From IMG/VR virus record IMGVR_UViG_3300012984_000010: a stretch of DNA of 64,000 nucleotides. One strand, written 5' to 3'. The notes below the pieces were generated by a model. That model saw only the letters and a program-made list of their open reading frames with translations. It did not search any database and was not told where the DNA came from. The stretch comes from a virus. Its lineage: Duplodnaviria; Caudoviricetes. Both the position numbers and the translations under genes were made by a program. Shown in pieces: positions 1 to 51,224 of this stretch; the stretch's first letter is position 1; each line of letters opens with the position of its first letter.

Positions 1-357
1 CGAGGGTGAGTTGAGGGTGGCGGTTGTGATGACGGGAGCGGCCAAGCTAGCTGGTGTGACAGTAGCTTGGGTGATAAGACCCGCTCGAACCAATTTCGAG
101 ATCTTACCGGAAGCGGCCGAAAGGATTACCTTCTCGGTCTCCAACACGTCAATGTAGCCAGCAATGGTGGCATCCCCAATCTTGGTGCGAGGGATGTAAC
201 AAGGCTGCTTGGGCGAATTGGCGTAACCATCCCGCCTGTATGCCTTCGGGTCCCCTCGGCTGCCTAGACGATGAACGCTCTTATTGGGAAGACCGTCGTC
301 AATGTCGTCAACACGAATGGCGCCCGAAACTGTCTGGTTGTGTGTAAGCCTCAGCAT
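1..357 (-). CDS. Probable structural protein, N-terminal part (runs off the window start; not in ORF track)
   Basis: Manual translation from ATG at 357: MLRLTHNQTVSGAIRVDDIDDGLPNK...TTATLNSPS, open to position 1. SD GAGGAG and the late-type motif lie upstream. Confidence 0.75.
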   Translation of the reverse strand, partial: MLRLTHNQTVSGAIRVDDIDDGLPNKSVHRLGSRGDPKAYRRDGYANSPKQPCYIPRTKIGDATIAGYIDVLETEKVILSAASGKISKLVRAGLITQATVTPASLAAPVITTATLNSPS

Positions 358-386
358 GCAATACTCCTCGCTTGTGGATCAAAAGC

Positions 387-395
387 GATAAAAGG
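387..395 (-). promoter_or_regulatory. Late-type motif CCTTTTATC
   Basis: Recurrent intergenic motif placed just after a stop codon and upstream of the next start. Confidence 0.55.
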
Positions 396-399
396 AACC

Positions 400-1047
400 T
401 TAGAGTGGTAGATAGTTGGTGAAAGAGGCCGAAAATGCTACCGTACCTCCGACACCTCGAACCAATAGGGTGTCGGTAGGGCCGTGGAAGATGGTGAGTG
501 TCTCTTGAGGAGCTACCTGCTGTTCACCACCGCTAGCCAGAACTGCAATGTATAGATTGCGACCGCCAGTGGCCTCCTCATTCTTGATATACAGGTCTTG
601 AGTTGTGAACGGCAGGTCCAATTGTTGGGCGTTGGCCAAAGCCGCCCCCTGAGGAGCCGTCCCAGAAATCAGGATTCGGCTGGTGCCGTAATGCTCTGAA
701 TCGGTCAACACAAGGGTTGCTGGACTGGGCGTCCCAGGAGTGCCTGAAAAGTCCAGGGGCACGAATTTCAGCCAGAAATTCTTGGAGTCAAACACACCTG
801 CCCCATTGTAGGTGTCCGGATTGAAGACAATTCGGATATGGTCCCTGTTGTTGACGCTATGCAATACAGCAGGGTTGATGGTTGGATCAAGAAAGCCAGA
901 ACTGATGTCGGCTGTCATCAAAGTGGTGAAGGAACCATCGAAATTTGCAGCTCCTTGAAGGCGGTAACCCTTTACATTGGGTTGTTTCGGAGTAAGCAAG
1001 TCCACAATGCCCTTACGACGCCGAATGATACTGAAACTTCTAGCCAT
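400..1047 (-). CDS. Hypothetical virion protein (beta-rich)
   Basis: 215 aa ORF abutting its neighbour, in the late module. Confidence 0.6.
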   Translation of the reverse strand: MARSFSIIRRRKGIVDLLTPKQPNVKGYRLQGAANFDGSFTTLMTADISSGFLDPTINPAVLHSVNNRDHIRIVFNPDTYNGAGVFDSKNFWLKFVPLDFSGTPGTPSPATLVLTDSEHYGTSRILISGTAPQGAALANAQQLDLPFTTQDLYIKNEEATGGRNLYIAVLASGGEQQVAPQETLTIFHGPTDTLLVRGVGGTVAFSASFTNYLPL

Positions 1048-1463
1048 TAGGATGTGCTCCGTTCCTTAGAAACAAGCGGCTGATAAGTGCTAGCTGAATC
1101 CTCCCCTTTGGTGGTCCGGACGTGATCCTGTACATCCGACCAAGAATGAGCCTCCTGACCCTGGTAATTGGGAATCAACCTAGACTTGAATACATGGTCC
1201 TTCTCTCGTTTGGCCATGTCGACATTCCGTCCAGCCCGATATTTCTTCTCTTTCCCTACCTTAGAAGCCCAACCACCACTTGCCCCATCCTTCATGACAA
1301 ATCCTATGTCCCCAGGATTGAACACTAGTTCGAGGGGGGCTCCGTCAGCATCGAGCAACACTTGAGTTCCCGCCTTGACTTCTTCGTATGTGGAGAAAGT
1401 GAGGCGTCTAGTTACGAGGGTACCATCAACCGTATTCTTGAGAGTGTAGGTAGGCATTTTCAT
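1047..1463 (-). CDS. FmdB-like (zinc-ribbon-type) protein lacking the cysteines
   Basis: N-terminal MPTYTLKN...GT and later PGDIGFVMKDGASGGW follow the FmdB pattern MPxYxYxC..CG / PxFxFKGSGW. Confidence 0.45.
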   Translation of the reverse strand: MKMPTYTLKNTVDGTLVTRRLTFSTYEEVKAGTQVLLDADGAPLELVFNPGDIGFVMKDGASGGWASKVGKEKKYRAGRNVDMAKREKDHVFKSRLIPNYQGQEAHSWSDVQDHVRTTKGEDSASTYQPLVSKERSTS

Positions 1464-2317
1464 TCTTTCTGGGTTTTGAGGGCTTTCTTGACCGCCCTCT
1501 GAGCTTTAGCTTTGGGGATTTCCCAGCTCTTGGTGAAGCTGAGGACCGATGCCACGTGTTTGCAGACTCGGTTGTCCCGTTCAGGATCTTTGATGTCCGG
1601 GGTAGAGGCAGTGCCCACCAAGGGACCTAGCTGATACCCTTCCTGCTTGGCGTGGAACTCTGGTCCCAACCATTGCCAAGCTGGACACGAACACGACATC
1701 TCAAGATCCAGTTTCCCGAAGGCAATCACATTGCCAGGTCGAGACGCCTTGATTTTGACCGCCTTAGGGCCGTTCCCACAGTCAACTGCGAAGATCCATC
1801 TGAGATTGCCCAGATCAGCCCTTTTGAGGGTGGTGGAGCAGCTGGTGGCTCGCTGCTTGAACTGTGAGTCCAAGCCCTCAAGGATTTGCTCTGGCACAGC
1901 CGCAAGCTTGACCCCATTGGCAGGTTTCAGTGTTTTGGAGTGGGCTGACCCCAATTTCCACAGCTCAGCGATAAAACTAGCGTTGTGGGTGTTTGGGATA
2001 CCATCTCGGTAAGGGTAAGGACTAGTATCTCTAGGCTCCGGTTTTCCTAACCCATTATAACTAGGTTTTGCTTGAGAATGATCGATCTGATCGGGATTAG
2101 TTTGGTCTTTGGTCAGATCGTCAGGACTTTCTACCCGATAGATGGACTCGTCTTTATTCTCAGGCTTACGAATGTCATCTACAGGTTTTGAAAATGTTGA
2201 CGAGCCAGGGATCCCAGGGTCAAGGGAGATCCCCTTTTGCGCAGGTTCGCCTCCTGGCAGCTCAGCTACTGCAAGAGTTTCGCCGTAAGGCGGACGAGAC
2301 ACAAGGGGTTGGGCCAA
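1460..2317 (-). CDS. SWIM zinc-finger protein
   Basis: SCSCPAW...RVCKHV (CxC-xn-CxH). Confidence 0.75.
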   Translation of the reverse strand: MAQPLVSRPPYGETLAVAELPGGEPAQKGISLDPGIPGSSTFSKPVDDIRKPENKDESIYRVESPDDLTKDQTNPDQIDHSQAKPSYNGLGKPEPRDTSPYPYRDGIPNTHNASFIAELWKLGSAHSKTLKPANGVKLAAVPEQILEGLDSQFKQRATSCSTTLKRADLGNLRWIFAVDCGNGPKAVKIKASRPGNVIAFGKLDLEMSCSCPAWQWLGPEFHAKQEGYQLGPLVGTASTPDIKDPERDNRVCKHVASVLSFTKSWEIPKAKAQRAVKKALKTQKE

Positions 2318-2319
2318 CG

Positions 2320-2619
2320 TTATTTGGCCTTCTTTTTCAGATTTCGTTCCAAACTCTCAACAGCATTGAAGGCTGTGCCTATCTCGTGATCCATCTCATA
2401 CAGTATCTTCTGTACGCGACGTACATCTGGGTCATCGTAATTATCGGTGTACGACACACCAGAAGCATCGTTGCCCACATCAGACAGCATCTGATGAACT
2501 TTCCGGATCTTGACTCGTGTCTCAATCAAGCTATCGACGCTTTCCTTCATGGCCTTTGAGAGCTTGTCGAAAGAAGGGGCCGCCGCAGTGAGGTCGTAGG
2601 AGTATTTGTTAGACATCAA
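2320..2619 (-). CDS. Hypothetical helical protein
   Basis: 99 aa ORF tightly packed between neighbours. Confidence 0.6.
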   Translation of the reverse strand: MMSNKYSYDLTAAAPSFDKLSKAMKESVDSLIETRVKIRKVHQMLSDVGNDASGVSYTDNYDDPDVRRVQKILYEMDHEIGTAFNAVESLERNLKKKAK

Positions 2620-4116
2620 TCAGGCCTTCCAGATCAGATCATCGACAGAGGCCGTCTTTGCAGTCAGCCCGTCCTTGATGGCTTGAAACATAGACGGCTT
2701 GACCCAATCTTTGGCCTTCCGATCCGCCTGTTCTTTGGGCAGTTTACCTTCGATCTGAAACAACTTGCTGGCCATCTCTCTTACAGATTCTTGCCAACCA
2801 CTCTTCTGCATCAAAGCCGACAAGCTCCCCATACCGATCTCTTTTTCGTGCTTCTTGAGACGCCGAACGAACGAGTCTTCAACTCCACCCGCTTGCTTGA
2901 AGTTGTCCTTGTTCTGTTCGTTCTGTTCTTCCCACTCTTTGGCATCCTCCGGACTCATGTTCTGAGTAGGGTCGGCCGACTCCCCTTCTTGGAAACGGGC
3001 TGCCTTGAACTTGTCACCATACTGGTCAGTGTTGTCTTTCCACTTGGCAGCATCGTCCTTGTCCATGTTTTCAGTAGGGTCAGCTGGCTTGCCTTCCTCA
3101 AACTTGGTCCGCTTCTCCTCGGTGGCTTCCACGTCCCAAGCAAGCCCTTCTGAGGCCATGTGAGCCATTTCAGCGGGGTCCCCTTTTCCATGACTAATGG
3201 TGGGGAGCGCCTGACGAATCTCTCGTTTGAGAGCTTCCGATTTGGTGGTGTCCAAGCCACCCATCTGAACCAAGAGTGTCCCAATGTCGTCAACGATGAA
3301 GAAGAGTTGCATGAAAGCGGGGCGCCAATGCTCCGAATTAGCAGCCCTCATGGCCCTCATGGCCTTGTCCTTGATACCTTCAAACAAGGCAGGAATAGAT
3401 GGGGAGAGTTGAAGAGCTGTCTTGGACTGCCCTTCCTCATCCGGCTGTTGGGCCGCCAAGCGTACCGCATCATCAACCGTAGCTTCCATCGCTACCCGAC
3501 GAACCACCGCCGCCAAACGAACCCTGCTCAACGGCTCTTGGTTGGGATCTTCCAACATCTCAGCCAGCTTCTCCAACTTATCAGCTGCCGTTATCTCTTG
3601 AGAGGCGGTGACGCCTGGCGGGTCAAGTTTGGTCAAGAAAGCGGCAACCTCGTGTACAGGTATTTGACCTTCTTCACGGGCAATACGGACGAATTCTCGG
3701 AGCTGTTGAGCGGCTTGTTTGGGGTGCATAGCAATATCCTGGGTTGGAAACGAACGATGTGGGACGGTCCGAATCCTAACCTCTTGTAGGACCCGTTCTA
3801 ACTCTTCTACCTTTTCAGGGCGTAACTCTTGCTTGAGTTCTTCGTAATCGATACGATCCGCCGCCAATGCTACAGCCTGCAAAGCCTTCTGTAGTTTGAA
3901 TGCCGACTCAGGGATCCCCCTGATCAGATGGCCCGCCACCTCGAACAGATGATCCTTTTGATCGGACCGTTCGACCAGTTTCACAGCCTCATCCACGTAT
4001 CGAACCAACTGATCGCAACGCAAACGAGCGTCCCCAAGCTCCTCTTGAAGATAGAGAATAGGGGACGCTGTTTTTGAATGACCTCGATTGAGGCACCTGT
4101 CAGTAGGATCAGTCAT
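2620..4116 (-). CDS. Probable internal head protein with a 36-aa tandem repeat
   Basis: 498 aa, charged and helical; repeat FxEGxxADPTxNM; many K-x-A motifs. Confidence 0.55.
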   Translation of the reverse strand: MTDPTDRCLNRGHSKTASPILYLQEELGDARLRCDQLVRYVDEAVKLVERSDQKDHLFEVAGHLIRGIPESAFKLQKALQAVALAADRIDYEELKQELRPEKVEELERVLQEVRIRTVPHRSFPTQDIAMHPKQAAQQLREFVRIAREEGQIPVHEVAAFLTKLDPPGVTASQEITAADKLEKLAEMLEDPNQEPLSRVRLAAVVRRVAMEATVDDAVRLAAQQPDEEGQSKTALQLSPSIPALFEGIKDKAMRAMRAANSEHWRPAFMQLFFIVDDIGTLLVQMGGLDTTKSEALKREIRQALPTISHGKGDPAEMAHMASEGLAWDVEATEEKRTKFEEGKPADPTENMDKDDAAKWKDNTDQYGDKFKAARFQEGESADPTQNMSPEDAKEWEEQNEQNKDNFKQAGGVEDSFVRRLKKHEKEIGMGSLSALMQKSGWQESVREMASKLFQIEGKLPKEQADRKAKDWVKPSMFQAIKDGLTAKTASVDDLIWKA

Positions 4117-4174
4117 ACACGCCCTTTTAGGATTCGCCTAAAGGGCGTGCACAAGAAGACTAGGGAAATTCGGG

Positions 4175-5335
4175 TTATCCGACGAACGCCTCTGGGAACT
4201 CCTCAACCAACCGATTACGGACCTCTAGATCTGTCTCGGCCGCTGCTACTGCCCGAATCACGTCCGGACGATCCTCATAATCGGCCTGTAGACGGGCAAC
4301 TTTCTTACGAGGAGCGTCGTCAAAGTTGTAATTATCCGGAAAGTCTGGGCAAATCGACTTAGCGATGCGACGCCTAGAGTCTGTAGCTGGAGGATTTACG
4401 GTCGCCACTACCCTGGTGGGGGCTGGGGCCGTCTGTTTGGCAGCTACCTTTTTGCGTGGACCATTGGTATTGGTGATCTTGATACCATCAATCTCAACCA
4501 CTTCGACATGATCGGCACCAGCTCCACCGGTACCTCCCAGGTCGAAAGTCTCAATCCCATTCCCCACCGTATTGGTGATGTTGAAGCCGTCCTTGTCCTG
4601 ATTTTTCAAAGCCGGAGCCCGTCCGACCACTCGACGTTCCAGGATCGCCTGATTGGCGGCACGCTCCCGCAATGCCCTAGGGTCCTCTTCAACCTCCCTA
4701 GCTGATCGAAATGCCTCAACTTCAGCCAAATAAGCTTCTCGCTCACCCTCTGGCAAACTATTGGCCAGATCTTCACGGGTACGGCCCACGCCTGGCTGGA
4801 CCTTGATCTTCTCAGCCTCTCGAATGGCCGCCCCAGCATCATCAAGATTGGTTCTGTGGACAGTAGCTGAAGAAAGTGTCCGAACCGGAATCCCTTCTTG
4901 TGAGTCAGCCGCACTGGCGTGACGTTGCCCACGAGGTGCGGTATTGAGTTGTCGAGTCTTTTGAGCGTGAGCCTGGACGTTGCGAACCTCTCGTTCCTCA
5001 GCGTCTACAGTCGTGACCGCTATTCTGGGCTTTTGAGGATCCATCGGATTGCCACCATCAGGATTCCGCATCGAGATCCCAGCCGAGATGGGTTGTAACG
5101 TGATGTTCGGATCGTATTCAGCTTCTGGGACAATCCAACCCATAGATATGGTACCGCGCAACTTAGGGACTGGCACTGGAGGGTACCCGTCCAGCGTTAC
5201 GCTCGTACCATCGAAGTCCAACTCCATACCTTTGGAGATGTTGAAACTCTGATTGTTAGGCAACCCCACAGAGAAAGTACGGGTTGCAATGAAGCGAATC
5301 GGAGTGCCAGGTGTGAATTTGATTGGTTGACTCAT
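4175..5335 (-). CDS. Hypothetical late protein
   Basis: 386 aa ORF with SD GGAG upstream. Confidence 0.65.
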   Translation of the reverse strand: MSQPIKFTPGTPIRFIATRTFSVGLPNNQSFNISKGMELDFDGTSVTLDGYPPVPVPKLRGTISMGWIVPEAEYDPNITLQPISAGISMRNPDGGNPMDPQKPRIAVTTVDAEEREVRNVQAHAQKTRQLNTAPRGQRHASAADSQEGIPVRTLSSATVHRTNLDDAGAAIREAEKIKVQPGVGRTREDLANSLPEGEREAYLAEVEAFRSAREVEEDPRALRERAANQAILERRVVGRAPALKNQDKDGFNITNTVGNGIETFDLGGTGGAGADHVEVVEIDGIKITNTNGPRKKVAAKQTAPAPTRVVATVNPPATDSRRRIAKSICPDFPDNYNFDDAPRKKVARLQADYEDRPDVIRAVAAAETDLEVRNRLVEEFPEAFVG

Positions 5336-5402
5336 TTAGATACATCTCCCAGAAGCCAAAGACGAAGCAGGCCTCTAAAGGAGAGTGTAGATAAATGGAT
5401 AA

Positions 5403-5621
5403 TCAGGCGGGAGGGTAACGCCAGCTACCTGGTTTACCGTCCTCATCGTAGTCCAAGGGTGGGCTAAAGAAGATGCCGGTTGGGTTTAGGATACAGAGTC
5501 GCACCTTCCCATCTGGCAAGACTTCTGTGACGATGGCCGCTCGGGGGACCGACAGGTATTCTCCCCCTGGAGTCCCATAGGCCTGATAGTGTACCGAATC
5601 GCTTATTTGAGGCTGACGCAT
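5403..5621 (-). CDS. Small phage hypothetical protein (SH3-like beta barrel)
   Basis: PQISDSVHY...RAAIVTEV...VRLCILNPTGIFF resembles a common small phage protein pattern. Confidence 0.65.
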   Translation of the reverse strand: MRQPQISDSVHYQAYGTPGGEYLSVPRAAIVTEVLPDGKVRLCILNPTGIFFSPPLDYDEDGKPGSWRYPPA

Positions 5622-5660
5622 CTACCAATGCTAGTAGATTGCGGGCAGGAAATCAAATCA

Positions 5661-5834
5661 TCACTTATGCTTGAACCATTCGACTTGTTCCAAGCGCTTC
5701 TCGGCTTCACCCTTCGAATCGTAGCAACCGCCGCTCCAAGAACCGTTGTCAGGCGAGCGCACGCAGTATTGACCCTTTTCTTTGCGGATCACGGCCTCTT
5801 TGAAGCGGGCTACAACGGAACGGGGCGAGATCAC
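5661..5834 (-). CDS. 57-aa protein (not in ORF track): MISPRSVVARFKEAVIRKEKGQYCVRSPDNGSWSGGCYDSKGEAEKRLEQVEWFKHK
   Basis: Manual translation from GTG 5834 to TGA 5661. It fills the gap between two genes, and its N-terminus closely resembles that of ORF 26015..26401. Confidence 0.8.
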   Translation of the reverse strand: MISPRSVVARFKEAVIRKEKGQYCVRSPDNGSWSGGCYDSKGEAEKRLEQVEWFKHK

Positions 5835-5840
5835 AAGGCC

Positions 5841-6488
5841 TCAGTGCCCCCAACCAGAAGACGTCTCATACTTCTCTTTGCCATCCCATTTGCTGGCATG
5901 ATGACCGTCGATCTTAGTCCCATTGGGGCCAGGAATCGAACGTTCCGCGGGACCATGGAAGCTGTTTGGCACAGCAACAACATAGCTAGCTCCCTGGGAC
6001 TCACGAACGACCTTTGAACCAATCGGCCTCGTGACGATCACTTTACCCTTGACTTCGACCACCTGAAAGAAGTTCACGTTCGTTTGGTCGTAACCCCACG
6101 TGCTATACAGGATGTCGCCCACCACAAAGCCGTGAACGTGGTTCTTACGGTCATCCACACGCTTCTGCTTGAATTCCAAGCTCAGCTTACGAGATTTGAC
6201 CGTTTCATCGATCTGACGTTGACGATTGGCGTCGCTCTTGAAAGAGTAGTTCCAAAGAGGCTTGTTCTGCTTGGCCGCAAACGCAATCGCGTAGAACTTG
6301 CCTTGACCTTCCCACTGCCAGATCGCCAAATCCGTGCCCTCTGGGGTGAGCGGAGCTTGATCCCTCACCTCTGCAGGTAGGTAGATCGACCTAGGCATCG
6401 TGAAGTTGGCTGCCGCCTTAAACCTAGCTGCCACGCCTTTGGCAGAGGCTTCTTTCGGAGACTTTTCTGTCGCGTTGATTTCAGCCAT
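5841..6488 (-). CDS. Phage hypothetical protein with GDILYSTWGYDQTNVNFFQV domain
   Basis: Start moved to ATG 6488 (SD AGGA); ORF track starts at 6506. Confidence 0.7.
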   Translation of the reverse strand: MAEINATEKSPKEASAKGVAARFKAAANFTMPRSIYLPAEVRDQAPLTPEGTDLAIWQWEGQGKFYAIAFAAKQNKPLWNYSFKSDANRQRQIDETVKSRKLSLEFKQKRVDDRKNHVHGFVVGDILYSTWGYDQTNVNFFQVVEVKGKVIVTRPIGSKVVRESQGASYVVAVPNSFHGPAERSIPGPNGTKIDGHHASKWDGKEKYETSSGWGH

Positions 6489-6508
6489 GTTCCTATAACG
6501 GCTCAAAT

Positions 6509-6516
6509 CATAAAGG
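6509..6516 (-). promoter_or_regulatory. Late-type motif CCTTTATG
   Basis: Same recurrent motif. Confidence 0.55.
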
Positions 6517-6548
6517 ATTAAGGAGGTTGAAAAAGATAGGCCAGTCGG

Positions 6549-7199
6549 TCAAATAGCCCAGTCGATAGGAGCCTCCCCGATCTGCTGAAGGGCCGCATTC
6601 ACTTTCGAAAAAGGCTTGGATCCAAAGAACCCGCTAGAGGCCGACATAGGGGAAGGGTGGGCCGACTCGATGATGGTATGCCTGGAGTCAATCAGGTCCT
6701 TCTTGGCCCTCGCATGACGGCCCCAAAGGACGAAGATGACCGGTTTCTCTCTGGAGCTGAGGGTTCGAATCACCTCATCAGTGAACTGTTCCCAGCCCTG
6801 CCCCTGATGTGAACCCGCCTGATGAGCTCGGACCGTCAAAGTGGTGTTAAGCAACAGAACTCCTTGGCGACACCATGGCTCCAACCAACCGGTCTTTGGT
6901 TTCTGGATCTCTAGGTCTTCCACCAGCTCCTTGAAAATATTGCGCAAGCTAGGAGGTAGTTGGGTGCCTGGTTGAACCGAGAAACTAAGCCCATGGGCCT
7001 GACCTGCCCCATGGTACGGATCTTGCCCCAAGATCACCACTTTGACATCATCGAAGGGCAGCTTGAAACAATTGAACGTATCTTGTGGGGGAGGAAAAAC
7101 AGGACCACGCTTCCGCTCAATGGCAACGAACTCAACCAACTCCTTGAAGTATGGCTTGGTGAATTCACCCGACAGGCGTTGCTTCCAAGAAGAATCCAA
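6549..7199 (-). CDS. ung: Uracil-DNA glycosylase, family 1
   Basis: VKVVILGQDPYHG, GLSFS, GVLLLN and HPSP motifs. Confidence 0.97.
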   Translation of the reverse strand: MDSSWKQRLSGEFTKPYFKELVEFVAIERKRGPVFPPPQDTFNCFKLPFDDVKVVILGQDPYHGAGQAHGLSFSVQPGTQLPPSLRNIFKELVEDLEIQKPKTGWLEPWCRQGVLLLNTTLTVRAHQAGSHQGQGWEQFTDEVIRTLSSREKPVIFVLWGRHARAKKDLIDSRHTIIESAHPSPMSASSGFFGSKPFSKVNAALQQIGEAPIDWAI

Positions 7200-7202
7200 T
7201 CC

Positions 7203-7538
7203 TCACCCTACCTTCAACCTAGCGGTATCCAGGATGGCCTGGAACTGCTCGGCTGGCAACAGCTCACGAGCTGTGGTCATGAAGCAGTTCTCCAGACTCC
7301 CTTGAGCGGCCTTGTTCTTCTGTCGCAACAGCAGCTGGATCTGCTGACATTGGCGACCCTTGCTCTTCAGTGCCCACTTGGCCCTACCCCACCAGTCCGA
7401 ATCGGCGAACTCACCCGTCTCTCTCGCCTTCGCCTGAGCGGCGTCAATTTGAGCTCGGATGGAATCGATGTCGGATTCCAGTGTTAGCTTTATTTGTAAC
7501 AGTTCTTCAGCTGATTTGGCGACGAGATCGTCAGGCAT
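7203..7538 (-). CDS. Small coiled-coil hypothetical protein
   Basis: 111 aa ORF preceded by a CGGTGTA motif. Confidence 0.7.
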   Translation of the reverse strand: MPDDLVAKSAEELLQIKLTLESDIDSIRAQIDAAQAKARETGEFADSDWWGRAKWALKSKGRQCQQIQLLLRQKNKAAQGSLENCFMTTARELLPAEQFQAILDTARLKVG

Positions 7539-7547
7539 ACGGTGCTG

Positions 7548-7554
7548 TACACCG
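7548..7554 (-). promoter_or_regulatory. CGGTGTA promoter-like motif (leaderless spacing)
   Basis: TA at -11/-10 relative to ATG 7538. Confidence 0.6.
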
Positions 7555-7591
7555 TCATCGGATGGCCATATTGGCCAATTGCGGCGGCTAT

Positions 7592-8194
7592 TTAAGCCTT
7601 GGACAACAACATCTTGTCCATTTGTGCGGTGGCGGCCCGAAGGTCCTGCCTAGCGTCAACCATTCTCTGGATAACCTGACCCAGCTCGTTGAACCAAGGA
7701 CGTAGCCTAGGGCTCTCGTCTACAGCGAGGTCTTGACAGAGGTTGACAGCCTCAGTGAAACTGCGATCGGCACCCTTATCTACCTTTGGAAGAATGTTTC
7801 GATTCAACAGATCGGCCAACTGTTCCTTCTTCTCTTGCAGTTCGGGATTTTCGGTCAAGTAGTCGGCAGTACCTTGGAGGAAATGAACGGCGTTTCGAAC
7901 GGCAGCCTCAATCCCACGTTGGTCTTGGGCCCTAGCAGCATCCATTCCCTGTTCGATTGCTGAAAGAACATGATCAAGGTGCTTCTTGGCGGCAGTATCG
8001 TCAATTTGACGAGATGCGTCCTTGATCTGGTCCACCACATCATCAAAAGCTTCCAAAATAGCCTTAGTGTCGTGAGTGCCGTCCCGCATGTATTTAGCAG
8101 CAATGGTGTTCAGACTGGTCTTAGCTTTATCAAGCTTTGACCGAATGTCGTTCTGAGCTGTAAACCGGCGGACGATATTTTTGGCTTGCGACAT
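7592..8194 (-). CDS. Helical hypothetical late protein
   Basis: 200 aa; late motif upstream; N-terminal SQAKNIVRRFTAQ. Confidence 0.65.
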   Translation of the reverse strand: MSQAKNIVRRFTAQNDIRSKLDKAKTSLNTIAAKYMRDGTHDTKAILEAFDDVVDQIKDASRQIDDTAAKKHLDHVLSAIEQGMDAARAQDQRGIEAAVRNAVHFLQGTADYLTENPELQEKKEQLADLLNRNILPKVDKGADRSFTEAVNLCQDLAVDESPRLRPWFNELGQVIQRMVDARQDLRAATAQMDKMLLSKA

Positions 8195-8210
8195 GATATC
8201 TGGGTAAGGC

Positions 8211-8220
8211 TATAAAAGGG
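8211..8220 (-). promoter_or_regulatory. Late-type motif CCCTTTTATA
   Basis: Same recurrent motif. Confidence 0.6.
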
Positions 8221-9369
8221 TCATTTGATGACGGCTTCCAACATCTGCACCTGCCCATCAGGCAAGGTCTCTTCAACGTAGTGATCGAACATCTCAGCGA
8301 AGTTCTCTACATAGCTGGTACGAGCGTAGGGACTGACAAAGGTTTCTTTCTTGAGGCCTTTGACGTTGATCCAACCACTCAGAGAGATTGATGCCTTGAT
8401 GGTAGGCTCCTCTTTGAGATGAACCTGGACCACCCAATCATAAGCTCGATTGAGCACTACCTTTTCCACCTCATACACCTTGCCGTCCTTGTCCTTGTGA
8501 AGATCTCCAGGCTTGGGCCAATTGGCCTTGTCGTTCAGGGCCTCTCTGAAGGCCGTTTCATCCCCGTTAAGAAGAGTTTTGTAGAGAGTCTCAATCTCAG
8601 CGTCTTTGCTCTTCAGGAACTTGAGATGTAGGCGGTGGCCCAACTCATGAATGATCGTACTGATAGCCGGTCCTTGCTTGCCTTTGAGGTTACCACGTAC
8701 GAAAAACTCGTCTGTTCTAGCAACGTAGAAGGCCAACACATTGGAGCTACGATTCACCGTATTGGTCACCTGAATGGTACCGTAGCAGATCTTGCCGAAC
8801 CCTTTGGCTTTGATCAGAGCGCTTGCTCGATCGACCACCTTGGCCACATCAGCCATCTGCTGGGCCGAAAAGTCGCCCGTATTGACGAGCGTGAAACATC
8901 CGGCCGTCTCAGTCGTGCCTGAGGCCTCATCGTTATGCAACTCTCCCTTCTTGATCACTCGATCCGCCGCATCCGCATACGACCGATAGGTGTCTACCTT
9001 CTTCTTGAGGACTTCAAGCGCTACATCAGGTTTAACTCTCTGGATGCGATTCTTGGAAAACTCCTTCGAAGCTTGCTCAATCAGCTTTCGATCGGCACTT
9101 GAAGAGATCTTGTATTGCTGCAAAATCCCCCAGAATATGCGATAAGCCCCCACCCGATTGAGGACTTCGAACGTCCCTGGCAGATAGACGGAGGCTCGGA
9201 GTGTAGTCAAAGAATCATCCTGAGCGGCACTAAGTTCGACCCACCTCTTCTCCATCGAATCCACTACTCGACGAAATTCGGCCAGAAGTGCCAGGATGTT
9301 TTCCGCCTCAGCCAATTTCCTACGATCATAGGACTCTGGGATTCGATAATCGTAGCTATAGTGGATCAT
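8221..9369 (-). CDS. Zincin (HExxH) metallopeptidase-domain protein
   Basis: IIHELGHRLH plus downstream SPYA...ENFAEMF third-ligand motif. Start likely ATG 9369 (SD GGGG); ORF track starts at 9387. Confidence 0.8.
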   Translation of the reverse strand: MIHYSYDYRIPESYDRRKLAEAENILALLAEFRRVVDSMEKRWVELSAAQDDSLTTLRASVYLPGTFEVLNRVGAYRIFWGILQQYKISSSADRKLIEQASKEFSKNRIQRVKPDVALEVLKKKVDTYRSYADAADRVIKKGELHNDEASGTTETAGCFTLVNTGDFSAQQMADVAKVVDRASALIKAKGFGKICYGTIQVTNTVNRSSNVLAFYVARTDEFFVRGNLKGKQGPAISTIIHELGHRLHLKFLKSKDAEIETLYKTLLNGDETAFREALNDKANWPKPGDLHKDKDGKVYEVEKVVLNRAYDWVVQVHLKEEPTIKASISLSGWINVKGLKKETFVSPYARTSYVENFAEMFDHYVEETLPDGQVQMLEAVIK

Positions 9370-9384
9370 GCCCCTAAGTTGAGG

Positions 9385-9394
9385 CATAAAAGGG
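9385..9394 (-). promoter_or_regulatory. Late-type motif CCCTTTTATG
   Basis: Same recurrent motif. Confidence 0.6.
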
Positions 9395-10324
9395 TCATTT
9401 GCTGGGCGGTCTGCCTATGGTTCTGGGATGTTCGATACCTAGGCGTTCGAGATGCCTTGTCACCGTTGTGGGTGCTTCATCCAGAATCTTCGCCATGCGT
9501 TTGATTGGAGTGCCGCAATCGACCAGCTCCTTAAGGCGTTCAAATGTGAGTTTTTTGCGTAGTTGGTACTGAGGCCCCTGGAATCCAAACGACAACTTGT
9601 AGTGCATACACTCTGGCATATGGGGCGTAATCAGGGCGATGAAACGTTCCGCCTGATCTTCACCCTCAAAGTGGAAGTTACCTGTGTTACCATCACACAC
9701 CTCCCAACGAGGCTTGAATCCAAGTCTCTCGAAGATGGTCAATGCTATTGCATGACTTGACGGCTGCATACCAAACGTGATGCGTGGCCACCAGCCAGAA
9801 GAACCGTCATCCATGAACCATATTGCTAGAGCCAAGTAATCCACCAAATCAACTACTTCTGGTTGCAGCTGTTTTGGCCCAGGATTGGGATAGAACAGGG
9901 CATGCCAGGAGAGAAGCTGAGTGTGGGAGACAGTTTCGAAACGCCAAGCTGGAAAGTCTCTGGAGATGTATAGAGGCTCAGTCTTTACCCAAGGTCCCCA
10001 TTCCTGGACTTTCCAATCCAAGTATGATTTCTGAGCTTCAGAGTGAAGCTCACAGTATCGAGCTACATTCAAGCTTTTTGAGATTCGACCATCCCCTAAC
10101 ATTGAGCCGACAAGCACCGATCGTAGTCGACCTTCGATTGGCACAATAAGATGCCTTTCTGTGCGACAAATGGTCTCAATACCAAATCGGCGACGCCAAG
10201 ATCTGACTCGTTTGACTGTTGTAGGGGCTCCTAAACGATCAGCTATTTGATCGTCTGTGAGTTTCTCGACTAGATACCAGCTACGTAGTTCTTCAGGGGC
10301 GACTGGGCACGATATAGATCTCAT
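9395..10324 (-). mobile_element. Free-standing LAGLIDADG homing endonuclease with HTH-like termini
   Basis: VLVGSMLGDG and LAIWFMDDGS paired motifs. It lies after the capsid gene stop and terminator. Start likely 10324; ORF track starts at 10342. Confidence 0.9.
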
Positions 10325-10360
10325 GATCTCACATCGTAGCATAACGGTGACTTAAGCTCC

Positions 10361-10399
10361 AAAGAAAAACGCCCCCAGAGATAACCCTGGAGGCGTTTT
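10361..10399 (-). terminator. Intrinsic terminator downstream of the major capsid gene
   Basis: Minus strand AAAACGCCTCCAG-GGTTATCT-CTGGGGGCGTTTT followed by CTTT. Confidence 0.85.
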
Positions 10400-10425
10400 C
10401 GATCAAGCCGTTAGGCTTATTGGGT

Positions 10426-11307
10426 TCAGATGCGGGTGACGACCAAACGGGTCATAGCACGCGGGTTGAATGCGCCTATGCCGACGTTCTGAAAACAGCT
10501 GAAACCAATTGTGCGGGCCTTCGGGTCATCCGCCGACAACACGGTCAGTTCCGTGCGGACGGGGAAGCGACCGAAGTTCTCTGGCTCGCCGCAGACGTAC
10601 ACGAAGCCGGCCGGAACCAGACGCGACGTGATGATCTGAGCACCCCAGAGGGTGGCCTGCAAACCTGTCTTGAGCAGGGTGGCCTGCGACTCGATATCCA
10701 GGATGTCGCGACCGAACTTGCGGATGTCCGCGTAGTCGGTGGCGTTCATGTAGATACGAGCAACACGGAGGTCGTGGCGTTCGATTTCCGCGAAAGCATC
10801 GGCGAGGACGCTTGGCGAGATCGGGGCCACCACGGCGATATCCGGGTTGGTCTGGCCGGGGAGGGTGTCGAAGCCCGAGACAGCGATGCTGTCGAGGACG
10901 GCGAACACGCGCTCATCTTCAGCGGCCTGAATCTGCGCCTTGGCGAGGTCCTGGCTGCGTTCAATGAGGTCGAAACGACGCTCCTTGATCTGGGTCAACG
11001 GTATTTCGGGGTTCGAGGCGATCTCGAACAACGGGAAGATGACACGACGTGGCTTCTGGATAGCCAAGATGTTCGAGCCTTCTTCGCCGACCACGAAAGC
11101 CGTAACTTCCGGATCCTTGTCGTAGATTGGCAATGCGCCGTCCGGTAGTTGTTCTACCAAGAAGGTCTTGCGACCAACGGCCGTGTAGTCACGGCGGAGA
11201 CGCAAGGGTTGGATCATCGAGGCTGCGAGCTTGGCACGACCGGCGGCGGTCTTGATGTACTCGGAGATGATCTGCTGCTTGACTTCGTTGCTTACTTGCT
11301 GAGGCAT
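10426..11307 (-). CDS. Major capsid protein (HK97-fold inferred)
   Basis: 293 aa. Follows protease, scaffold and decoration genes; strong terminator after it; marked GC codon bias; capsid-like pattern VEQLPDGALPIYDKD...VIFPLFEIASNPEIPLTQIKERRFDL. Confidence 0.88.
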   Translation of the reverse strand: MPQQVSNEVKQQIISEYIKTAAGRAKLAASMIQPLRLRRDYTAVGRKTFLVEQLPDGALPIYDKDPEVTAFVVGEEGSNILAIQKPRRVIFPLFEIASNPEIPLTQIKERRFDLIERSQDLAKAQIQAAEDERVFAVLDSIAVSGFDTLPGQTNPDIAVVAPISPSVLADAFAEIERHDLRVARIYMNATDYADIRKFGRDILDIESQATLLKTGLQATLWGAQIITSRLVPAGFVYVCGEPENFGRFPVRTELTVLSADDPKARTIGFSCFQNVGIGAFNPRAMTRLVVTRI

Positions 11308-11354
11308 AGCTTTGTTTTCCTTACGGGAATTCCCTTAGAGGCCTAGTTTCCCGC

Positions 11355-11972: not shown

Positions 11973-12053
11973 ATTGAAATTCTCCTAAAAATGGGCTTTG
12001 TTGCTGGGGGACGAAATTTACATCTAGATATTGAGTATTAGGTCTTCAGCAAT

Positions 12054-13280: not shown

Positions 13281-13315
13281 GACGGGATCACCCTTTCCTA
13301 TGCCTTGTAGTGGGG

Positions 13316-13324
13316 TATAAAGAG
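13316..13324 (-). promoter_or_regulatory. Late-type motif CTCTTTATA upstream of the scaffold gene
   Basis: Same recurrent motif. Confidence 0.55.
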
Positions 13325-13326
13325 AT

Positions 13327-14874: not shown

Positions 14875-14877
14875 GAC

Positions 14878-15968: not shown

Positions 15969-15994
15969 TTGCCCGTCCCTTACTAAAACTTAGT

Positions 15995-16390: not shown

Positions 16391-16415
16391 TTGTGGGGTT
16401 CCTAAGTCCTTCTAG

Positions 16416-16425
16416 GTAAAAAGGG
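16416..16425 (-). promoter_or_regulatory. Late-type motif CCCTTTTTAC
   Basis: Same recurrent motif. Confidence 0.5.
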
Positions 16426-16426
16426 T

Positions 16427-19261
16427 TCAGCCCAGGTTCTTGAGAGCCTGGAGTAGTGGCCGGAAAGCGGCGCGAGCGGCGGCCGGAGTCTCAGAAGCAG
16501 TCTTGATCACAAGAGCCTTGAGTGAGGCGTACTTGGCAGCTTCCTTCTTCTCCTCTTTGTCGTCTTTCTTCTCTTCCTTGTCGTCGTCCTTCTTCAGCCA
16601 AGGGGGCAGCTCACCAGCAGTTTTCTGCTCCTGTTCCTTGTCTTGTTGCTCTTGCTCCGCCAAACGATCCGCGAAGTCGGTCATCTCAAACGCGGTCTTG
16701 GCATCAAACTTTGCAACCTTAGCTGCGAATTCACGAACGGTGCGTGATGATTTCATGGGGGTCACTTCTCCAATGGTGGCACTCAATGTGTTGTTAAAAG
16801 AAGAAGTGCTGTCCGAGGACCCGCTCTTCTCAGTTACGGTCAAAAGGGTTTGGGTCGTGCTGGGTTGCGGCTTGCCCGCCAACTTGGCCAAAAGATTGGC
16901 ATATTGGGTGGCATTCACTGCACCGTTGTAACGACTTGAGTAGATGGCCAGATCCAGAGCTGCTCTCAATTGAGCATCTGGGTCAACCCCCGGGTCGGCC
17001 ACATCCAACAAGCTGGACCCTAAGAATTGACGGGCCTCAGCCAAGATGGTTGTCCAATCAGACTCTCCCAAGTCTCTTTGGTGCGGCTGCATCCAACCTG
17101 GATAGTCTGGTGCCCCATAGGCGTACGGGTCGACACCATGATAGACACTCGTTTTGCTGGTAGATCCCATCACATGGGTTCTAGAATAAGTAAAAACACT
17201 AGCCTGTTTGACAGCTTCGTGACTGGCATCCTCATGTTGATTCTGGGAAAAAGCATCGTCCCAAATATCTGAGGCCTTATCGGGGCCCTCTTCTGGAGAA
17301 CCTGTGACTGGTTTTTCTGGCTCTGGTGGGGCTTCCTCAACGAATCCTCCTGGAGGTTTACCTTGAGGATTCTTCATGTAGGCCTGCAGGGCCTCTTCAT
17401 GCTTGGTCTTACGATTAGCCCAAGCACTGTATTGAGAAGACCAGCGCTTATGGAGTGCCTTGTACTCCTTGTGCTCCAATGGCCCTAATAGTTGCTGAAC
17501 TTTGGTAGCTTTCTCGGGGTCCAAAGTCCTCAATCTATTCATGAGGCGGGTTCGAAACAGCTTCTGGGAAGGATTGATCGAATGATCATCCCCATAAAGG
17601 GCGTTGCGTTTCTGAAAGTATTGCCCAGCCTTCTTCAGACCACTCAATATGCCCTCAGGAGTGTCTCGCTCCGAGATGTTGCCAGATGAGCTGTTGGTCA
17701 AAAATTGCTCTTTAGCAAGACGGTAATCGTTGGCTTGGAGGTAAGCTTTGGTCGCCTTAGCGGCCACCGGATTACCATCAACCTGCTTCAAAAGCTCCTT
17801 GACTGCCCTATCACTGATACGAGCCGTCTCTTCTCCGCTAGCTAGTGTGTCCTTGTAGATCTTCGCTGCTAGCTTGTCTCCAACCTTTGGAGAAGGGTTG
17901 GACAACAAGGTTTTGGCAATCTGACCAGCGATCTTCTCAGGTATCCTAGGTTTGCCTGTCAGTGAGCTCTTGTTGGCTAGTTTTTGAGTCAAGCTGTCGC
18001 GAGCAGCCAAGCTAAGAGCCACCATCCGCATCTGATGTGACCGCAAAGCTTCCGCTTTTTCTTCATCAGACAATGTATCGAATGGAACTCTCTCTCCTGA
18101 TTTTCGCCAATAAGTGGGTGGTTTTACCTTGGCAGGATCAATTTGATAGAAATGCCCTACCTTCTCAGCAAAATCGGTCGGCTTAGAGATCTTGACTCCC
18201 AGTTTGGCTGTGTTGTAGTCACGCACAAGAGTTTTGACGTCCTGTGGATGCATGCTGGCAAAGTTGGCCGCTTCCTCAGGCTCAAACGTATTGAGCAACA
18301 GACTCAACGCCTCTTGTTGGTCCGCCTCAGTAGGGGGTTTCCTTACAGGTTCGCCGATACCGTGTCGCTGACCTTCTGAGGGTGGTTTGAGCTTTTTCTT
18401 GGAAGGTTTTTCCTCTTGCGCCGGTTCCTTTGCAGGCTCTTCCTTCGTGGGTTCCGCCTTGGGTGCGGACTCGCCTTCAGAAGGGGTGGGCTGTTGTGCC
18501 GGATCTCCCTTTGGGACTTCGGTCTTTGGTTCCTCTTGCTTCGGAGCAGGCTCAGCAGCTGGCTCGGCGGGGGCGGGGGGCTCAACTGGCTTTTTCTTAC
18601 CCTTTGTCTTGGGGGCAACAGACGGTTTAGTTTCCAGTGCCGCCTTCAGATCCCCAATCGTCTTGATGCTGTCCGGCAGATCGACCTTGGGGAAGAACTT
18701 CGATGCAGGTAGATCGGGGTTGCCCTCAACGATGCCATTTAGGGTCTCACCAGGGGTGATGAACCGTTTGAAGATGTCCTTGAGACGGGCATCCCCCTTG
18801 GACATTTCGCGCAGCTGATCTCCAGCCTGCTGGTAGAACTGCTCCTTGTCGGTAGGCTTTGGTGTCGACTGTTCGGCAGGAGACGTCTCCTCCTTGGACT
18901 CAGGCACCACAGGATTGGGAGATCGCTCGGCCTCTTCCTCTGGCTTGACAGCCTCGTACTGACCAGGCTTCTCTTTTAGAGTGTCGGGCGAGATCTGTAC
19001 CGTCTCACCCGTTTCTTTGTTCTTGGCAGGGATACGCTCATTTCTGGCAAAACGGCGCACCACCCGTCCGACCGACCCACCAATATCCTTGAAGTTCCGA
19101 CTTTCGTCCGGATCCTTCTCTTGATCAGGGTCTGCCTCGGGCGTTACTCGTTCCCTCCTAAGATCTCTTCTAGGGGGTTTCTGTTTGGGCGCCGGTCGGA
19201 CGAGACGACTCGCCTCGTCGTCCTGACGTTCCTCTGGAGTCTTGGTTGACCAACGGTCCAT
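16427..19261 (-). CDS. Large multi-module probable internal head protein
   Basis: 944 aa with Pro/Glu/Lys-rich linkers, directly downstream of the portal gene. Confidence 0.6.
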   Translation of the reverse strand: MDRWSTKTPEERQDDEASRLVRPAPKQKPPRRDLRRERVTPEADPDQEKDPDESRNFKDIGGSVGRVVRRFARNERIPAKNKETGETVQISPDTLKEKPGQYEAVKPEEEAERSPNPVVPESKEETSPAEQSTPKPTDKEQFYQQAGDQLREMSKGDARLKDIFKRFITPGETLNGIVEGNPDLPASKFFPKVDLPDSIKTIGDLKAALETKPSVAPKTKGKKKPVEPPAPAEPAAEPAPKQEEPKTEVPKGDPAQQPTPSEGESAPKAEPTKEEPAKEPAQEEKPSKKKLKPPSEGQRHGIGEPVRKPPTEADQQEALSLLLNTFEPEEAANFASMHPQDVKTLVRDYNTAKLGVKISKPTDFAEKVGHFYQIDPAKVKPPTYWRKSGERVPFDTLSDEEKAEALRSHQMRMVALSLAARDSLTQKLANKSSLTGKPRIPEKIAGQIAKTLLSNPSPKVGDKLAAKIYKDTLASGEETARISDRAVKELLKQVDGNPVAAKATKAYLQANDYRLAKEQFLTNSSSGNISERDTPEGILSGLKKAGQYFQKRNALYGDDHSINPSQKLFRTRLMNRLRTLDPEKATKVQQLLGPLEHKEYKALHKRWSSQYSAWANRKTKHEEALQAYMKNPQGKPPGGFVEEAPPEPEKPVTGSPEEGPDKASDIWDDAFSQNQHEDASHEAVKQASVFTYSRTHVMGSTSKTSVYHGVDPYAYGAPDYPGWMQPHQRDLGESDWTTILAEARQFLGSSLLDVADPGVDPDAQLRAALDLAIYSSRYNGAVNATQYANLLAKLAGKPQPSTTQTLLTVTEKSGSSDSTSSFNNTLSATIGEVTPMKSSRTVREFAAKVAKFDAKTAFEMTDFADRLAEQEQQDKEQEQKTAGELPPWLKKDDDKEEKKDDKEEKKEAAKYASLKALVIKTASETPAAARAAFRPLLQALKNLG

Positions 19262-19277
19262 GCACCCTTACAAAATG

Positions 19278-19286
19278 CATAAAAGG
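19278..19286 (-). promoter_or_regulatory. Late-type motif CCTTTTATG
   Basis: Same recurrent motif. Confidence 0.6.
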
Positions 19287-19299
19287 ACCGTTAGTTGAT

Positions 19300-21604: not shown

Positions 21605-21623
21605 CAGGAAATCATCCAGTGTA

Positions 21624-25434: not shown

Positions 25435-25442
25435 TCGCTACC

Positions 25443-29711: not shown

Positions 29712-29714
29712 AAA

Positions 29715-29999
29715 TCAACCTTTTACTGGAGAGGTGTTGTCAAACTGACGCTCAATGTAGAAGTCTTCGCCTTCTTTGCGGATAGACCAAAGGTCATTGG
29801 TCGACAAATGAACCAGTTCGTTCGAAGCTGTCCTCGTGAAGCCCTTGAGCTGATCCAAAGAAGCGACACGAATCCTGGCCGGCTTGACAGCAGCTGCCTT
29901 TTGGCCAAAAGGGGAGATAATGGTTGGTTCGGACTCAAAGAATGCGTCCATACCTGAAGCAGTGCTCTGAATGTTGGATAGTTTGAAGTCAGCCATCAA
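29715..29999 (-). CDS. Small hypothetical late protein
   Basis: 94 aa; RVAS and RTAS motifs. Confidence 0.6.
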   Translation of the reverse strand: MMADFKLSNIQSTASGMDAFFESEPTIISPFGQKAAAVKPARIRVASLDQLKGFTRTASNELVHLSTNDLWSIRKEGEDFYIERQFDNTSPVKG

Positions 30000-30003
30000 T
30001 ACC

Positions 30004-30930
30004 TCACGTAATCACAAGTCTAATGAGAACATCCGTGTAATCGTTTGCACTGTAACCACTGATCCTAAGGGTTTCCTCGTAGGTCCCCAGATACAACCCC
30101 TCCACAGGGGCGACCGAGACAGTGATGTTCTGATTCTGGGCGGCACCCAAGGTCCCACTGCTAGGAGTGAACCCAGACAACCAATTCTGGGATAGCCCCG
30201 TCAACCGAGCAATCTGGAAATCCAAGACTGATCCAGAAGGTCCGGTGTTGGTCACCATAAAGGACATGTCGGAGATTGGCGGAAAAGGACCACTCAACGG
30301 GCGGGCTGCCGTGAAAATGACCAATGCCGTGGAGGTCCCAATGACGGCCTTTGGCCGAACATTGATCGTGACAGGAAGCGTCTGGACAGTATTTGTGGCT
30401 CTAGGGTCCTGGACGGTGATGGTGGCGTGATATGGGCTGCCACTGGTCAGCAATGAGGTGGAGTCCACCGCAACATCGAAATTACCGTACTGGTTGGGCG
30501 CCAAACCCCCCACCACAGCAGGGGAAACGTCCACATAAGGAGCGGAAGATGACAACGAAGCATCGAGCAAGGACCCGAAAACTCCAGAATTGGTCACTGT
30601 ACTGGTCTGAGCGAGAGAAAACCCTCGACCCTCATCCACATCAAAAGTGAGTGAGGTGGGCGGGCCCAGCAAGATGGTGGGCTTGTAGCTCTCCTTCAGA
30701 GTCTGGATCGAGTCTGCCATCGACTGCACCACATCCCCAGGGAGTGGGATCGAATCTCTCAAAAACCCATAAGGCGTAAAGATATCAACGATTTGGAATG
30801 TAGGCTCTAGGCCCGACACATCCATTCGCGTAGTCCAGCTCCACGTTCTGGAATTTACCAGGACACTGAACTTTATATCTTGGGTTTGAATCCTGGAAGG
30901 GGGGAACGGCAAGGTAGACTCCTCCACCAA
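30004..30930 (-). CDS. Structural protein with two Ig-like (BACON-type) domains
   Basis: Two copies of SLxF...VTNxG..GS.L...(S)..W/Y(L/V)..P..G.L...ITV. Confidence 0.65.
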   Translation of the reverse strand: MVEESTLPFPPSRIQTQDIKFSVLVNSRTWSWTTRMDVSGLEPTFQIVDIFTPYGFLRDSIPLPGDVVQSMADSIQTLKESYKPTILLGPPTSLTFDVDEGRGFSLAQTSTVTNSGVFGSLLDASLSSSAPYVDVSPAVVGGLAPNQYGNFDVAVDSTSLLTSGSPYHATITVQDPRATNTVQTLPVTINVRPKAVIGTSTALVIFTAARPLSGPFPPISDMSFMVTNTGPSGSVLDFQIARLTGLSQNWLSGFTPSSGTLGAAQNQNITVSVAPVEGLYLGTYEETLRISGYSANDYTDVLIRLVIT

Positions 30931-30940
30931 TTGCCTCCCT

Positions 30941-30954
30941 ATAAGTAAAAAAGG
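30941..30954 (-). promoter_or_regulatory. Late-type motif CCTTTTTTACTTAT at the start of the head module
   Basis: Variant of the recurrent motif; TTTTTACTTAT also occurs at 17186-17196. Confidence 0.5.
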
Positions 30955-30961
30955 CTTATTT

Positions 30962-31662: not shown

Positions 31663-31663
31663 T

Positions 31664-51216: not shown

Positions 51217-51224
51217 CAACAGTC

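Follow-up and report, generated by a model that had tools for sequence, protein, structure and literature searches.

A late-promoter-like box and leader helices predicted to bury selected start codons in a giant soil phage

Can one short DNA element both start a late transcript and, on RNA read through from upstream, silence the gene behind it? The question is raised by a 64,000-nucleotide (nt) stretch (the window) of the IMG/VR record IMGVR_UViG_3300012984_000010, from an uncultured giant soil phage (Duplodnaviria; Caudoviricetes) whose minus strand carries nearly all genes and whose GC content is 52%. In the virion module of this phage a promoter-like box stands just downstream of stop codons, and the original prediction held that the box doubles, across many late genes, as the 5′ arm of hairpins that occlude the ribosome binding site (RBS) or the start codon of the next gene. 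The precedent that it invoked is borne out by the literature: at T4 genes e, soc, 49 and I-TevI, late promoters encode the 5′ strand of an inhibitory helix (PMC3014915). We find that stable helices over the Shine-Dalgarno sequence (SD) and/or the AUG are predicted at four starts of the window (4116, 5335, 9369 and 19261; genes, leaders and families are named here by the position of the start), with z-scores of -3.1 to -5.6, and that the 5′ strands of these helices begin inside or right after the box. We put at about 55% the probability that a T4-type gate, built on a helix embedded in the box, operates at four or five individual starts and not across the module.

Helices over individual start codons

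Hairpin z-scores were obtained by folding full segments against 200-1000 dinucleotide shuffles. Fixed windows (-40..+6 or -55..+6) were too short for the outer stems in the 19261 and 5335 leaders and understated both, so these leaders were refolded in full context. The boxes and helices at the four starts are the following.

4150..4159, minus strand: box TCTTCTTGTG of gene 2620-4116, ending in TGTG, four bases that pair with (U)AUGA at the start codon
4137..4153, minus strand: 5′ strand of the 4116 helix, TGTGCACGCCCTTTAGG, which in the folds starts inside the box
4113..4131, minus strand: 3′ strand of the 4116 helix, holding the SD-like AAAGGG (4122-4127) and the ATG (4114-4116)
5390..5399, minus strand: box TCCATTTATC in the leader of gene 4175-5335; CATTTA (5392-5397) pairs with TAAATG (5333-5338) over the start codon
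5333..5389, minus strand: extended 5335 hairpin, with TACA/TGTA, the anti-SD TCTCCT (5379-5384) paired with GGGAGA (5345-5350), and the inner stem AGAGGCC/GGCTTCT
9385-9394, minus strand: box CCCTTTTATG upstream of a zincin-like peptidase gene with its ATG at 9367-9369
9366..9394 with the box, minus strand: 9-base-pair (bp) hairpin UUAUGCCUC (9381-9389)/GGGGCAUGA (9366-9374), covering ATG 9367-9369
19278-19287, minus strand: box TCCTTTTATG in the leader of gene 16427-19261 (leader structure 19249..19295)
19249..19295, minus strand: outer stem ACUAACGGUCC/GGACCGUUGGU, 11 bp, enclosing the whole box and codons 1-5
Within the same structure, minus strand: inner stem AUGCAUUUU/AGGGUGCAU, 9 bp, which together with the outer stem buries ATG 19259-19261

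The leader of gene 2620-4116 (4113-4159, minus strand) is the strongest instance and was absent from the sites listed in the original prediction. Its layout is TAG-TCTTCTTGTG-CACGCCCTTTAGG-cgaat-CCTAAAAGGGCGTGT-ATG, and it folds into a helix of 15-17 bp with a predicted free energy (dG) of -21.9 and a z-score of -5.43; none of 1000 shuffles was as stable. In relatives, which here are IMG/VR contigs of 130-530 kb, the 4116 leaders keep the box in the form TCyTCTTGTG, and the same succession of box, helix and ATG is seen there with unrelated stems (CACGCCCTT/AAGGGCGTG, GAGCCGTCTCC/GGAGATGGCTC, GAGCCCCCTTCG/CGAAGGGTGCTC and CGGAGTCCTTTGCTG/AGCAGGAAAGGACTCCG), the mean z-score of the family being -2.24. 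In an alignment of eight sequences, 80.7% of cells were paired, versus 41-65% in slid registers; both sides had changed in 7 of the 15 pairs, and the covariation score was reached by 0 of 500 shuffles. The RBS pairs with upstream sequence with a probability (P) of 0.63, and 43% of family members have p ≤ 0.05 against shuffled-upstream controls. A covariance model of the leader retrieved orthologous leaders only and no new sites. The 4116 protein is 498 amino acids long and repeat-rich, and its homologues, roughly 288 in number, are all unnamed; a C-terminal repeat, SRFEEGKPADPTxNMSPEDAxKWK, is present in them once to several times, and a few of them have an OAS1_C-type Pfam match.

At gene 4175-5335, the motif had been read as CCTTTAG at 5395; the conserved box is instead TCCATTTATC. 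The leader folds with a dG of -26.1 and a z-score of -4.17, and its RBS pairs with upstream sequence with a P of 0.69 (39% of members with p ≤ 0.05 against shuffled-upstream controls). In a subgroup of relatives, the SD GGAG pairs with a CC(T/C) tract immediately 3′ of the box (88.5% paired versus about 54% in slid registers), and 6 of 13 pairs have changed on both sides. The helix joining box and AUG reads CATTTA/TAAATG here and CATTTG/CAAATG or CAGATG in relatives, with 78% of cells paired versus 27-49% in slid registers and one pair changed from A-U to G-C. RNAalifold returned no consensus from MAFFT alignments of 17 and of 9 diverse 5335 leaders, because variable loops misalign; subgroup alignments worked. 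The 5335 protein had no match in Pfam, PHROGs or the protein atlas.

On this comparative evidence, the 4116 and 5335 helices are under selection and are kept in relatives through compensatory change. These are also the only two families in which pairing of the RBS with upstream sequence exceeds shuffled-upstream controls; in seven others, 0-11% of members have p ≤ 0.05.

The hairpin at 9369 has a dG of -12.2 and z-scores of -3.1 to -3.6 in two shuffle tests. The protein encoded behind it carries HELGH and ENFAEMF zincin motifs; a search with this protein gave no useful relatives, and none with a leader of the 9369 type was found. At 19261, the 6-bp stem originally quoted is the core of a 20-bp structure (dG -23.9, z -5.60, 0 of 200 shuffles as stable). 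This structure is kept in the nearest relative, L026 (dG -20.1, z -2.77), and is absent in five more distant relatives (z -1.4 to +0.4).

All seven sequences quoted in the original prediction can be read letter for letter on the minus strand at the positions given for them. Among the seven hairpins that it had proposed to cover the RBS or AUG, those at 19261, 5335 and 9369 beat shuffles; the other four are at chance level.

368-388, minus strand: claimed stem of 6 bp; dG -7.9, z +0.11
6491..6517, minus strand: imperfect hairpin at a weak box; dG -6.6, z -0.74, with a minimum-energy fold that pairs differently
16408..16424, minus strand: CCTTTT/AGAAGG hairpin; dG -5.6, z +0.43, lying upstream of the likely SD at -11 and not covering it
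30933..30955, minus strand: G-U-rich hairpin over AGGGAGG; dG -8.8, z -0.35, indistinguishable from shuffles

In relatives, the leaders of the 16390 gene have no box, and a search with the protein of the 30927 gene found no useful related loci.

A fifth case lies outside the range of the original prediction. The ATG of an HNH endonuclease gene at 63308 is buried in a helix (63275-63355, minus strand) of 15 contiguous bp, or 18 with an outer extension, with a dG of -35.1 and a z-score of -6.4. The helix begins right after the late-like sequence TTTGCTTATG, and the leader is of the same design as the gates of the virion module.

The promoter-like box

The box, with the consensus TCyTyyT(A/G)T(A/G), is strand-specific, lies just 3′ of stop codons and is confined to the virion module. 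A Gibbs search of relatives' leaders yielded the consensus TCTTTTTATA, in which C2, A8 and T9 are the strongest positions and position 8 also admits G; a search for k-mers enriched ahead of start codons singled out CCTTTTAT. YCCTTTWW occurs 12 times on the minus (gene) strand versus twice on the plus strand. There are 19 copies of CCTTT[TA][TA] on the gene strand, eight of them in short intergenic gaps (intergenic sequence being roughly 6-8% of the genome), and all eight are in the virion module, directly after stop codons. The box is kept upstream of orthologues of five genes (starts 19261, 13280, 5335, 4116 and 357) in distant relatives whose proteins are only 35-65% identical, at distances of 11-61 nt from the ATG. 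Matches to σ70-type promoters are depleted in positions 1-20000 of the window (2 versus 10.6 ± 3.7 in shuffles), and terminator-like sites are not enriched there. The other virion genes are translationally coupled and have no box.

Because of its conservation, its strand bias and its variable distance to the ATG, the box can be likened to a promoter element, and the simplest reading is that it is the late promoter element of the phage. In the virion module it stands at the head of about ten to twelve gene groups that resemble transcription units. Three further copies are of interest here.

13316..13325, minus strand: box TCTCTTTATA of gene 12054-13280, with the best position weight matrix score in the genome (12.7); absent from the sites originally listed
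387..396, minus strand: box TCCTTTTATC of gene 1-357, conserved in relatives
8211..8220, minus strand: box CCCTTTTATA, 16 nt before ATG 8194, with no SD and no hairpin (z +0.64)

The 13280 box is conserved in about 50 relatives. Boxes only 14-16 nt before an ATG that lacks a recognisable SD are found at 8194-8220 and in the 4116 leaders of L105, L084 and L030; if transcription begins some 7 nt beyond the box, late mRNAs behind such boxes would have leaders of about 8 nt.

Two other upstream elements were seen that differ from the box. The top enriched upstream k-mer, (C)GGTGTA(G/A), is unrelated to it and lies 8-12 nt upstream of many early and middle start codons (40 copies on the gene strand versus 25 on the other), at sites in positions 51000-64000 of the window and beyond, for example 62190, 61412, 60298 and 51231; its placement suggests a separate promoter class with very short leaders or none. 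The leader of the gene preceding the capsid gene (11973-12053, minus strand) contains a different conserved element, AGATGTA(A/G)AT ... CCCCAGCAA, which is kept in dozens of relatives; this leader is unstructured (family z +0.66).

Two known promoter types were considered and dropped. An N4-like DNA-hairpin promoter does not agree with hairpins that follow the box, differ in size and are missing from half of the boxes. A resemblance to T7/T3-like promoters (CTATAGGGAGA and CACTAAGG) has no supporting polymerase, and the GGGAG in question stands at SD distance from the ATG.

A gene-specific switch and its alternatives

In the switch that we propose, the last bases of the box together with its flank would form the 5′ strand of the helix, and the start codon with part of the SD would form the 3′ strand (4116, 5335, 9369 and 19261). 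Read-through RNA made from upstream early in infection would contain both strands, so that the ribosome site would be buried and the gene silent; late RNA starting about 5-10 nt past the box would have lost the 5′ strand and would be translated. We infer from the sequence the promoter role of the box, the start sites some 5-10 nt downstream, the early read-through RNA and the differing translation of the two RNA forms. Pairing of the AUG was modelled on long RNAs (-90..+30) and on short RNAs starting just past the box; between the two, P(AUG paired) drops from 0.98-1.00 to 0.13-0.44 in the leaders that fit the design.

5335 leader: P(AUG paired) 1.00 in the long RNA, 0.33 in the short RNA
9369 leader: 0.99 in the long RNA, 0.13-0.18 for starts at box+4 to +7
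19261 leader: 0.98 in the long RNA, 0.42 in the short RNA
4116 leader: 0.98 in the long RNA, 0.18 at box+7, 0.10 at box+10
4116 family, eight relatives, mean P(AUG)/P(SD): 0.87/0.83 in the long RNA, 0.28/0.54 at box+7, 0.21/0.48 at box+10
5335 family, 17 relatives, P(AUG)/P(SD): 0.72/0.75 in the long RNA, 0.43/0.50 at box+7

At the remaining box sites, long and short RNAs show no contrast. A P of at least 0.95 in the long RNA combined with a drop of at least 0.4 was found at 6.6% of 152 control starts versus 3 of 10 box sites, counted before 4116 was added. In the model, 4116 transcripts starting at box+1 or +4 retain a stem of at least 10 bp over the SD, and the model therefore predicts starts at or beyond box+7; from box+7, only a 6-bp 5′ stem is left, and the SD and AUG are free. 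Box+7 is the usual start spacing after a -10-like element.

As in the four T4 genes, a helix would sequester the SD and/or AUG on transcripts entering from upstream, the DNA for the 5′ strand of this helix contains or adjoins a short late-promoter-like box, and RNA started just downstream would lose that strand. As in T4, too, only selected genes are concerned, with a homing endonuclease gene among them (63308 here, I-TevI in T4), and one gate stands at a putative peptidase (9369) that might be harmful if made early. Unlike in T4, the box of this unrelated, uncultured huge soil phage (TCyTyyTRTR) has no relation to T4's TATAAATA, in three leaders the box itself pairs with CAUG through its last four bases, and the arrangement here is one predicted from sequence and folding. 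The putatively gated genes encode the zincin-motif protein (9369), the 498-amino-acid repeat-rich protein (4116), a 944-amino-acid protein (19261) and the product of gene 4175-5335 and, beyond the range of the original prediction, the HNH endonuclease (63308).

A number of results weigh against the switch or narrow its reach. Six of about eleven boxes in the window (357, 6488, 8194, 13280, 16390 and 30927) have structure no better than shuffles, and 64 box instances in relatives show no general excess of structure (mean z -0.03). Ten box leaders (357, 5335, 6488, 8194, 9369, 13280, 16390, 19261, 30927 and a copy 3.2 kb before the start of the window, with 4116 excluded) do not differ from 152 other leaders (p 0.65 for energy, 0.32 for RBS pairing and 0.11 for z). 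Folding orthologous leaders family by family in short fixed windows gave a mean z of -2.07 for the 5335 family (50% of members below -1.64) and of -0.69 for the 19261 family (27%), the latter an underestimate since the outer stem is cut off. Two other families with the box stood at -0.14 (13280; 3%) and +0.44 (357; 0%), and families without a conserved box (11307, 11972, 16390 and 1047) at -0.79 to +0.66 (0-23%). The 13280 family has neither a conserved hairpin nor RBS occlusion, and 357 leaders are unstructured in relatives, with swap-test p values of 0.66-0.97. Lineage-corrected swap tests were modest and noisy (p 0.014 for 5335, 0.19 for 19261, and 0.012 for the control family 16390), covariation of the 5335 box-to-AUG helix is thin, most pairs being invariant, and some relatives of the 4116 gene have a leader of 14-16 nt with no hairpin at all. 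Transcripts of 4116 and 5335 that start at box+7 would keep an inner stem over part of the SD; release would therefore be only partial unless the start lies further downstream. Neither a T7-like or other single-subunit RNA polymerase nor a sigma region 2 was found in the 142-kb record, which is about 30% of the genome, and the runs listed as containing positions 4000-13999 of the window are soil metagenome DNA runs only, with no RNA run among them.

Thus, the claim that the switch is used systematically across the head module does not stand. The companion idea that the CCTT core acts as a generic anti-SD lacks statistical backing: pairing is not enriched, and leaders in which box flank and RBS were swapped between genes pair only slightly less well than cognate ones (p 0.11). 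Exact-register pairing (box position 10 with -1, +k with -(k+1)) was not enriched over shifted registers among 114 box-to-ATG instances and is therefore not a clade-wide rule. What folding against shuffles and other leaders supports is individual leaders (4116, 5335, 9369 and 19261), not box leaders as a group, and what the check in relatives supports is compensatory change at 4116 and 5335, with 19261 kept in the nearest relative alone.

The structured leaders might instead serve mRNA processing or stability, the U-rich box being an RNase E-type site or the helices RNase III substrates; cleavage would either leave a downstream mRNA whose 5′ end is protected by a stem-loop or directly expose the ribosome site. 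This reading, which we consider unlikely, has the geometry on its side: the U-rich box lies directly 5′ of a stable helix or within an internal loop, as RNase E sites typically do, the helices of the 4116, 5335 and 19261 leaders are 15-22 bp long, and inner stems would stay at the 5′ end of a shortened RNA. With few terminators, long polycistronic RNAs needing processing are also plausible, and long intergenic helices beside ribosome sites in co-oriented, poorly terminated late operons recall the RNase III sites of T7 and the N and cIII leaders of lambda. Unlike in those systems, however, the helices adjoin a conserved box of which helix-free copies exist (13280, 357 and 8194) and whose C2, A8 and T9 are kept in very divergent relatives. 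This specificity, together with the helix-free copies, points to a protein or DNA recognition site more than to a nuclease of loose preference. The data give no sign of cleavage, and the absence of any Rfam 15 match at the gathering score in positions 1-32000 of the window also counts against processing.

Chance complementarity would account for most of the listed stems without any function, since a pyrimidine-rich box ending in TATG faces a purine-rich SD and CATG 15-40 nt away. The four of seven listed stems that are no better than shuffles, the near-equivalence of swapped pairs, the likeness of box leaders to the 152 others, the mean z of the 64 instances in relatives and the lack of exact-register enrichment all speak for chance. 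It leaves unexplained, however, the helices with z-scores of -4 to -5.6, the recurrence of the 4116 and 5335 helices with different stems and compensatory pairs, and the family-specific excess of RBS occlusion; we judge chance quite improbable as the explanation.

The 4116 and 5335 helices could also be operators for an RNA-binding translational repressor or activator, such as the encoded protein regulating itself or a helix-opening phage factor or helicase, with the transcript start being irrelevant. T4 has such translational operators for genes 32 and 43 and the RegA targets (PMC3014915), the helices here are conserved only for particular genes, and their inner stems would persist in shortened RNAs. 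Stem and loop sequences are not conserved between relatives, which makes a sequence-specific site unlikely, and the constant feature is abutment to box and ATG, not a loop motif; we regard operators as very unlikely. Intrinsic (Rho-independent) terminators share with these stems the position of G+C-rich stem-loops in gaps after well-expressed structural genes and are excluded, since the stems at 4113-4153, 5333-5397, 9366-9389 and 19249-19295 precede an ATG or coding sequence, end at or inside the next start codon and are followed by no T run (U-tract), and a terminator scan called none of the four. The box-embedded, gene-specific gate remains the reading that we prefer.

Gene layout and significance

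The viral record comprises 142,489 bp, with a CheckV completeness of about 30%. A protein identical to one of the phage's was found on a contig of 475,623 bp, and the record is a fragment of a genome of roughly 476 kb; phage DNA is present in soil metagenome DNA runs. Along the direction of transcription, replication genes are followed by a NusG-5′-nuclease fusion, a protein with two sigma-70 region-4 domains, and the virion module.

31009-31662, minus strand: protein with two sigma-70 region-4 domains and without region 2 (E 2.7e-15)
Start of the virion module, minus strand: weak terminase-like match
19300-21132, minus strand: portal
16427-19261, minus strand: 944-amino-acid protein adjoining the portal gene
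13327-14874, minus strand: protease-like gene
10426-11307, minus strand: capsid protein

The fusion of a NusG-like N-terminus to a 5′-3′ exonuclease and the double region-4 protein occupy 31009-33472 (minus strand), immediately upstream of the virion module, and both may take part in late transcription. Among more than 80 contigs (130-530 kb; loci L026-L105), identity is 93-98% for the capsid protein and only 35-65% for neighbouring virion proteins; by this comparison, capsid evolution is unusually slow for so diverse a clade. Directly after the capsid gene lies a LAGLIDADG homing endonuclease gene (9395-10425, minus strand; Pfam E 1.4e-21), preceded by a terminator-like hairpin with a T-run (about 10355-10400); relatives hold different genes at this position.

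It is conceivable, if doubtful, that in this huge-phage clade, where genes run one way and are rarely terminated, box and start-codon context have co-evolved into a reusable clamp in which T(A/G)TG of the box pairs with CAUG and any stem may stand between. If so, the clamp could be installed before any gene to be kept silent until late, such as those for packaged cargo proteins, the zincin peptidase or homing endonucleases; promoter-embedded helices would be a general layer of temporal control in huge phages and not a T4 curiosity, and, in uncultured genomes, they would show where late transcripts begin.

Very little is known of how uncultured huge phages regulate their genes. For a very large clade, the present analysis provides a candidate late promoter in the form of a conserved box, evidence that at least two conserved genes of the virion module have selected, RBS-burying leader helices anchored on that box, and the concrete prediction that late transcripts start 5-10 nt past it. 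If confirmed, the T4 trick of placing a promoter inside an inhibitory helix would have been reused convergently in an unrelated lineage, and such helices would provide a sequence-only flag for genes whose early expression is selected against.

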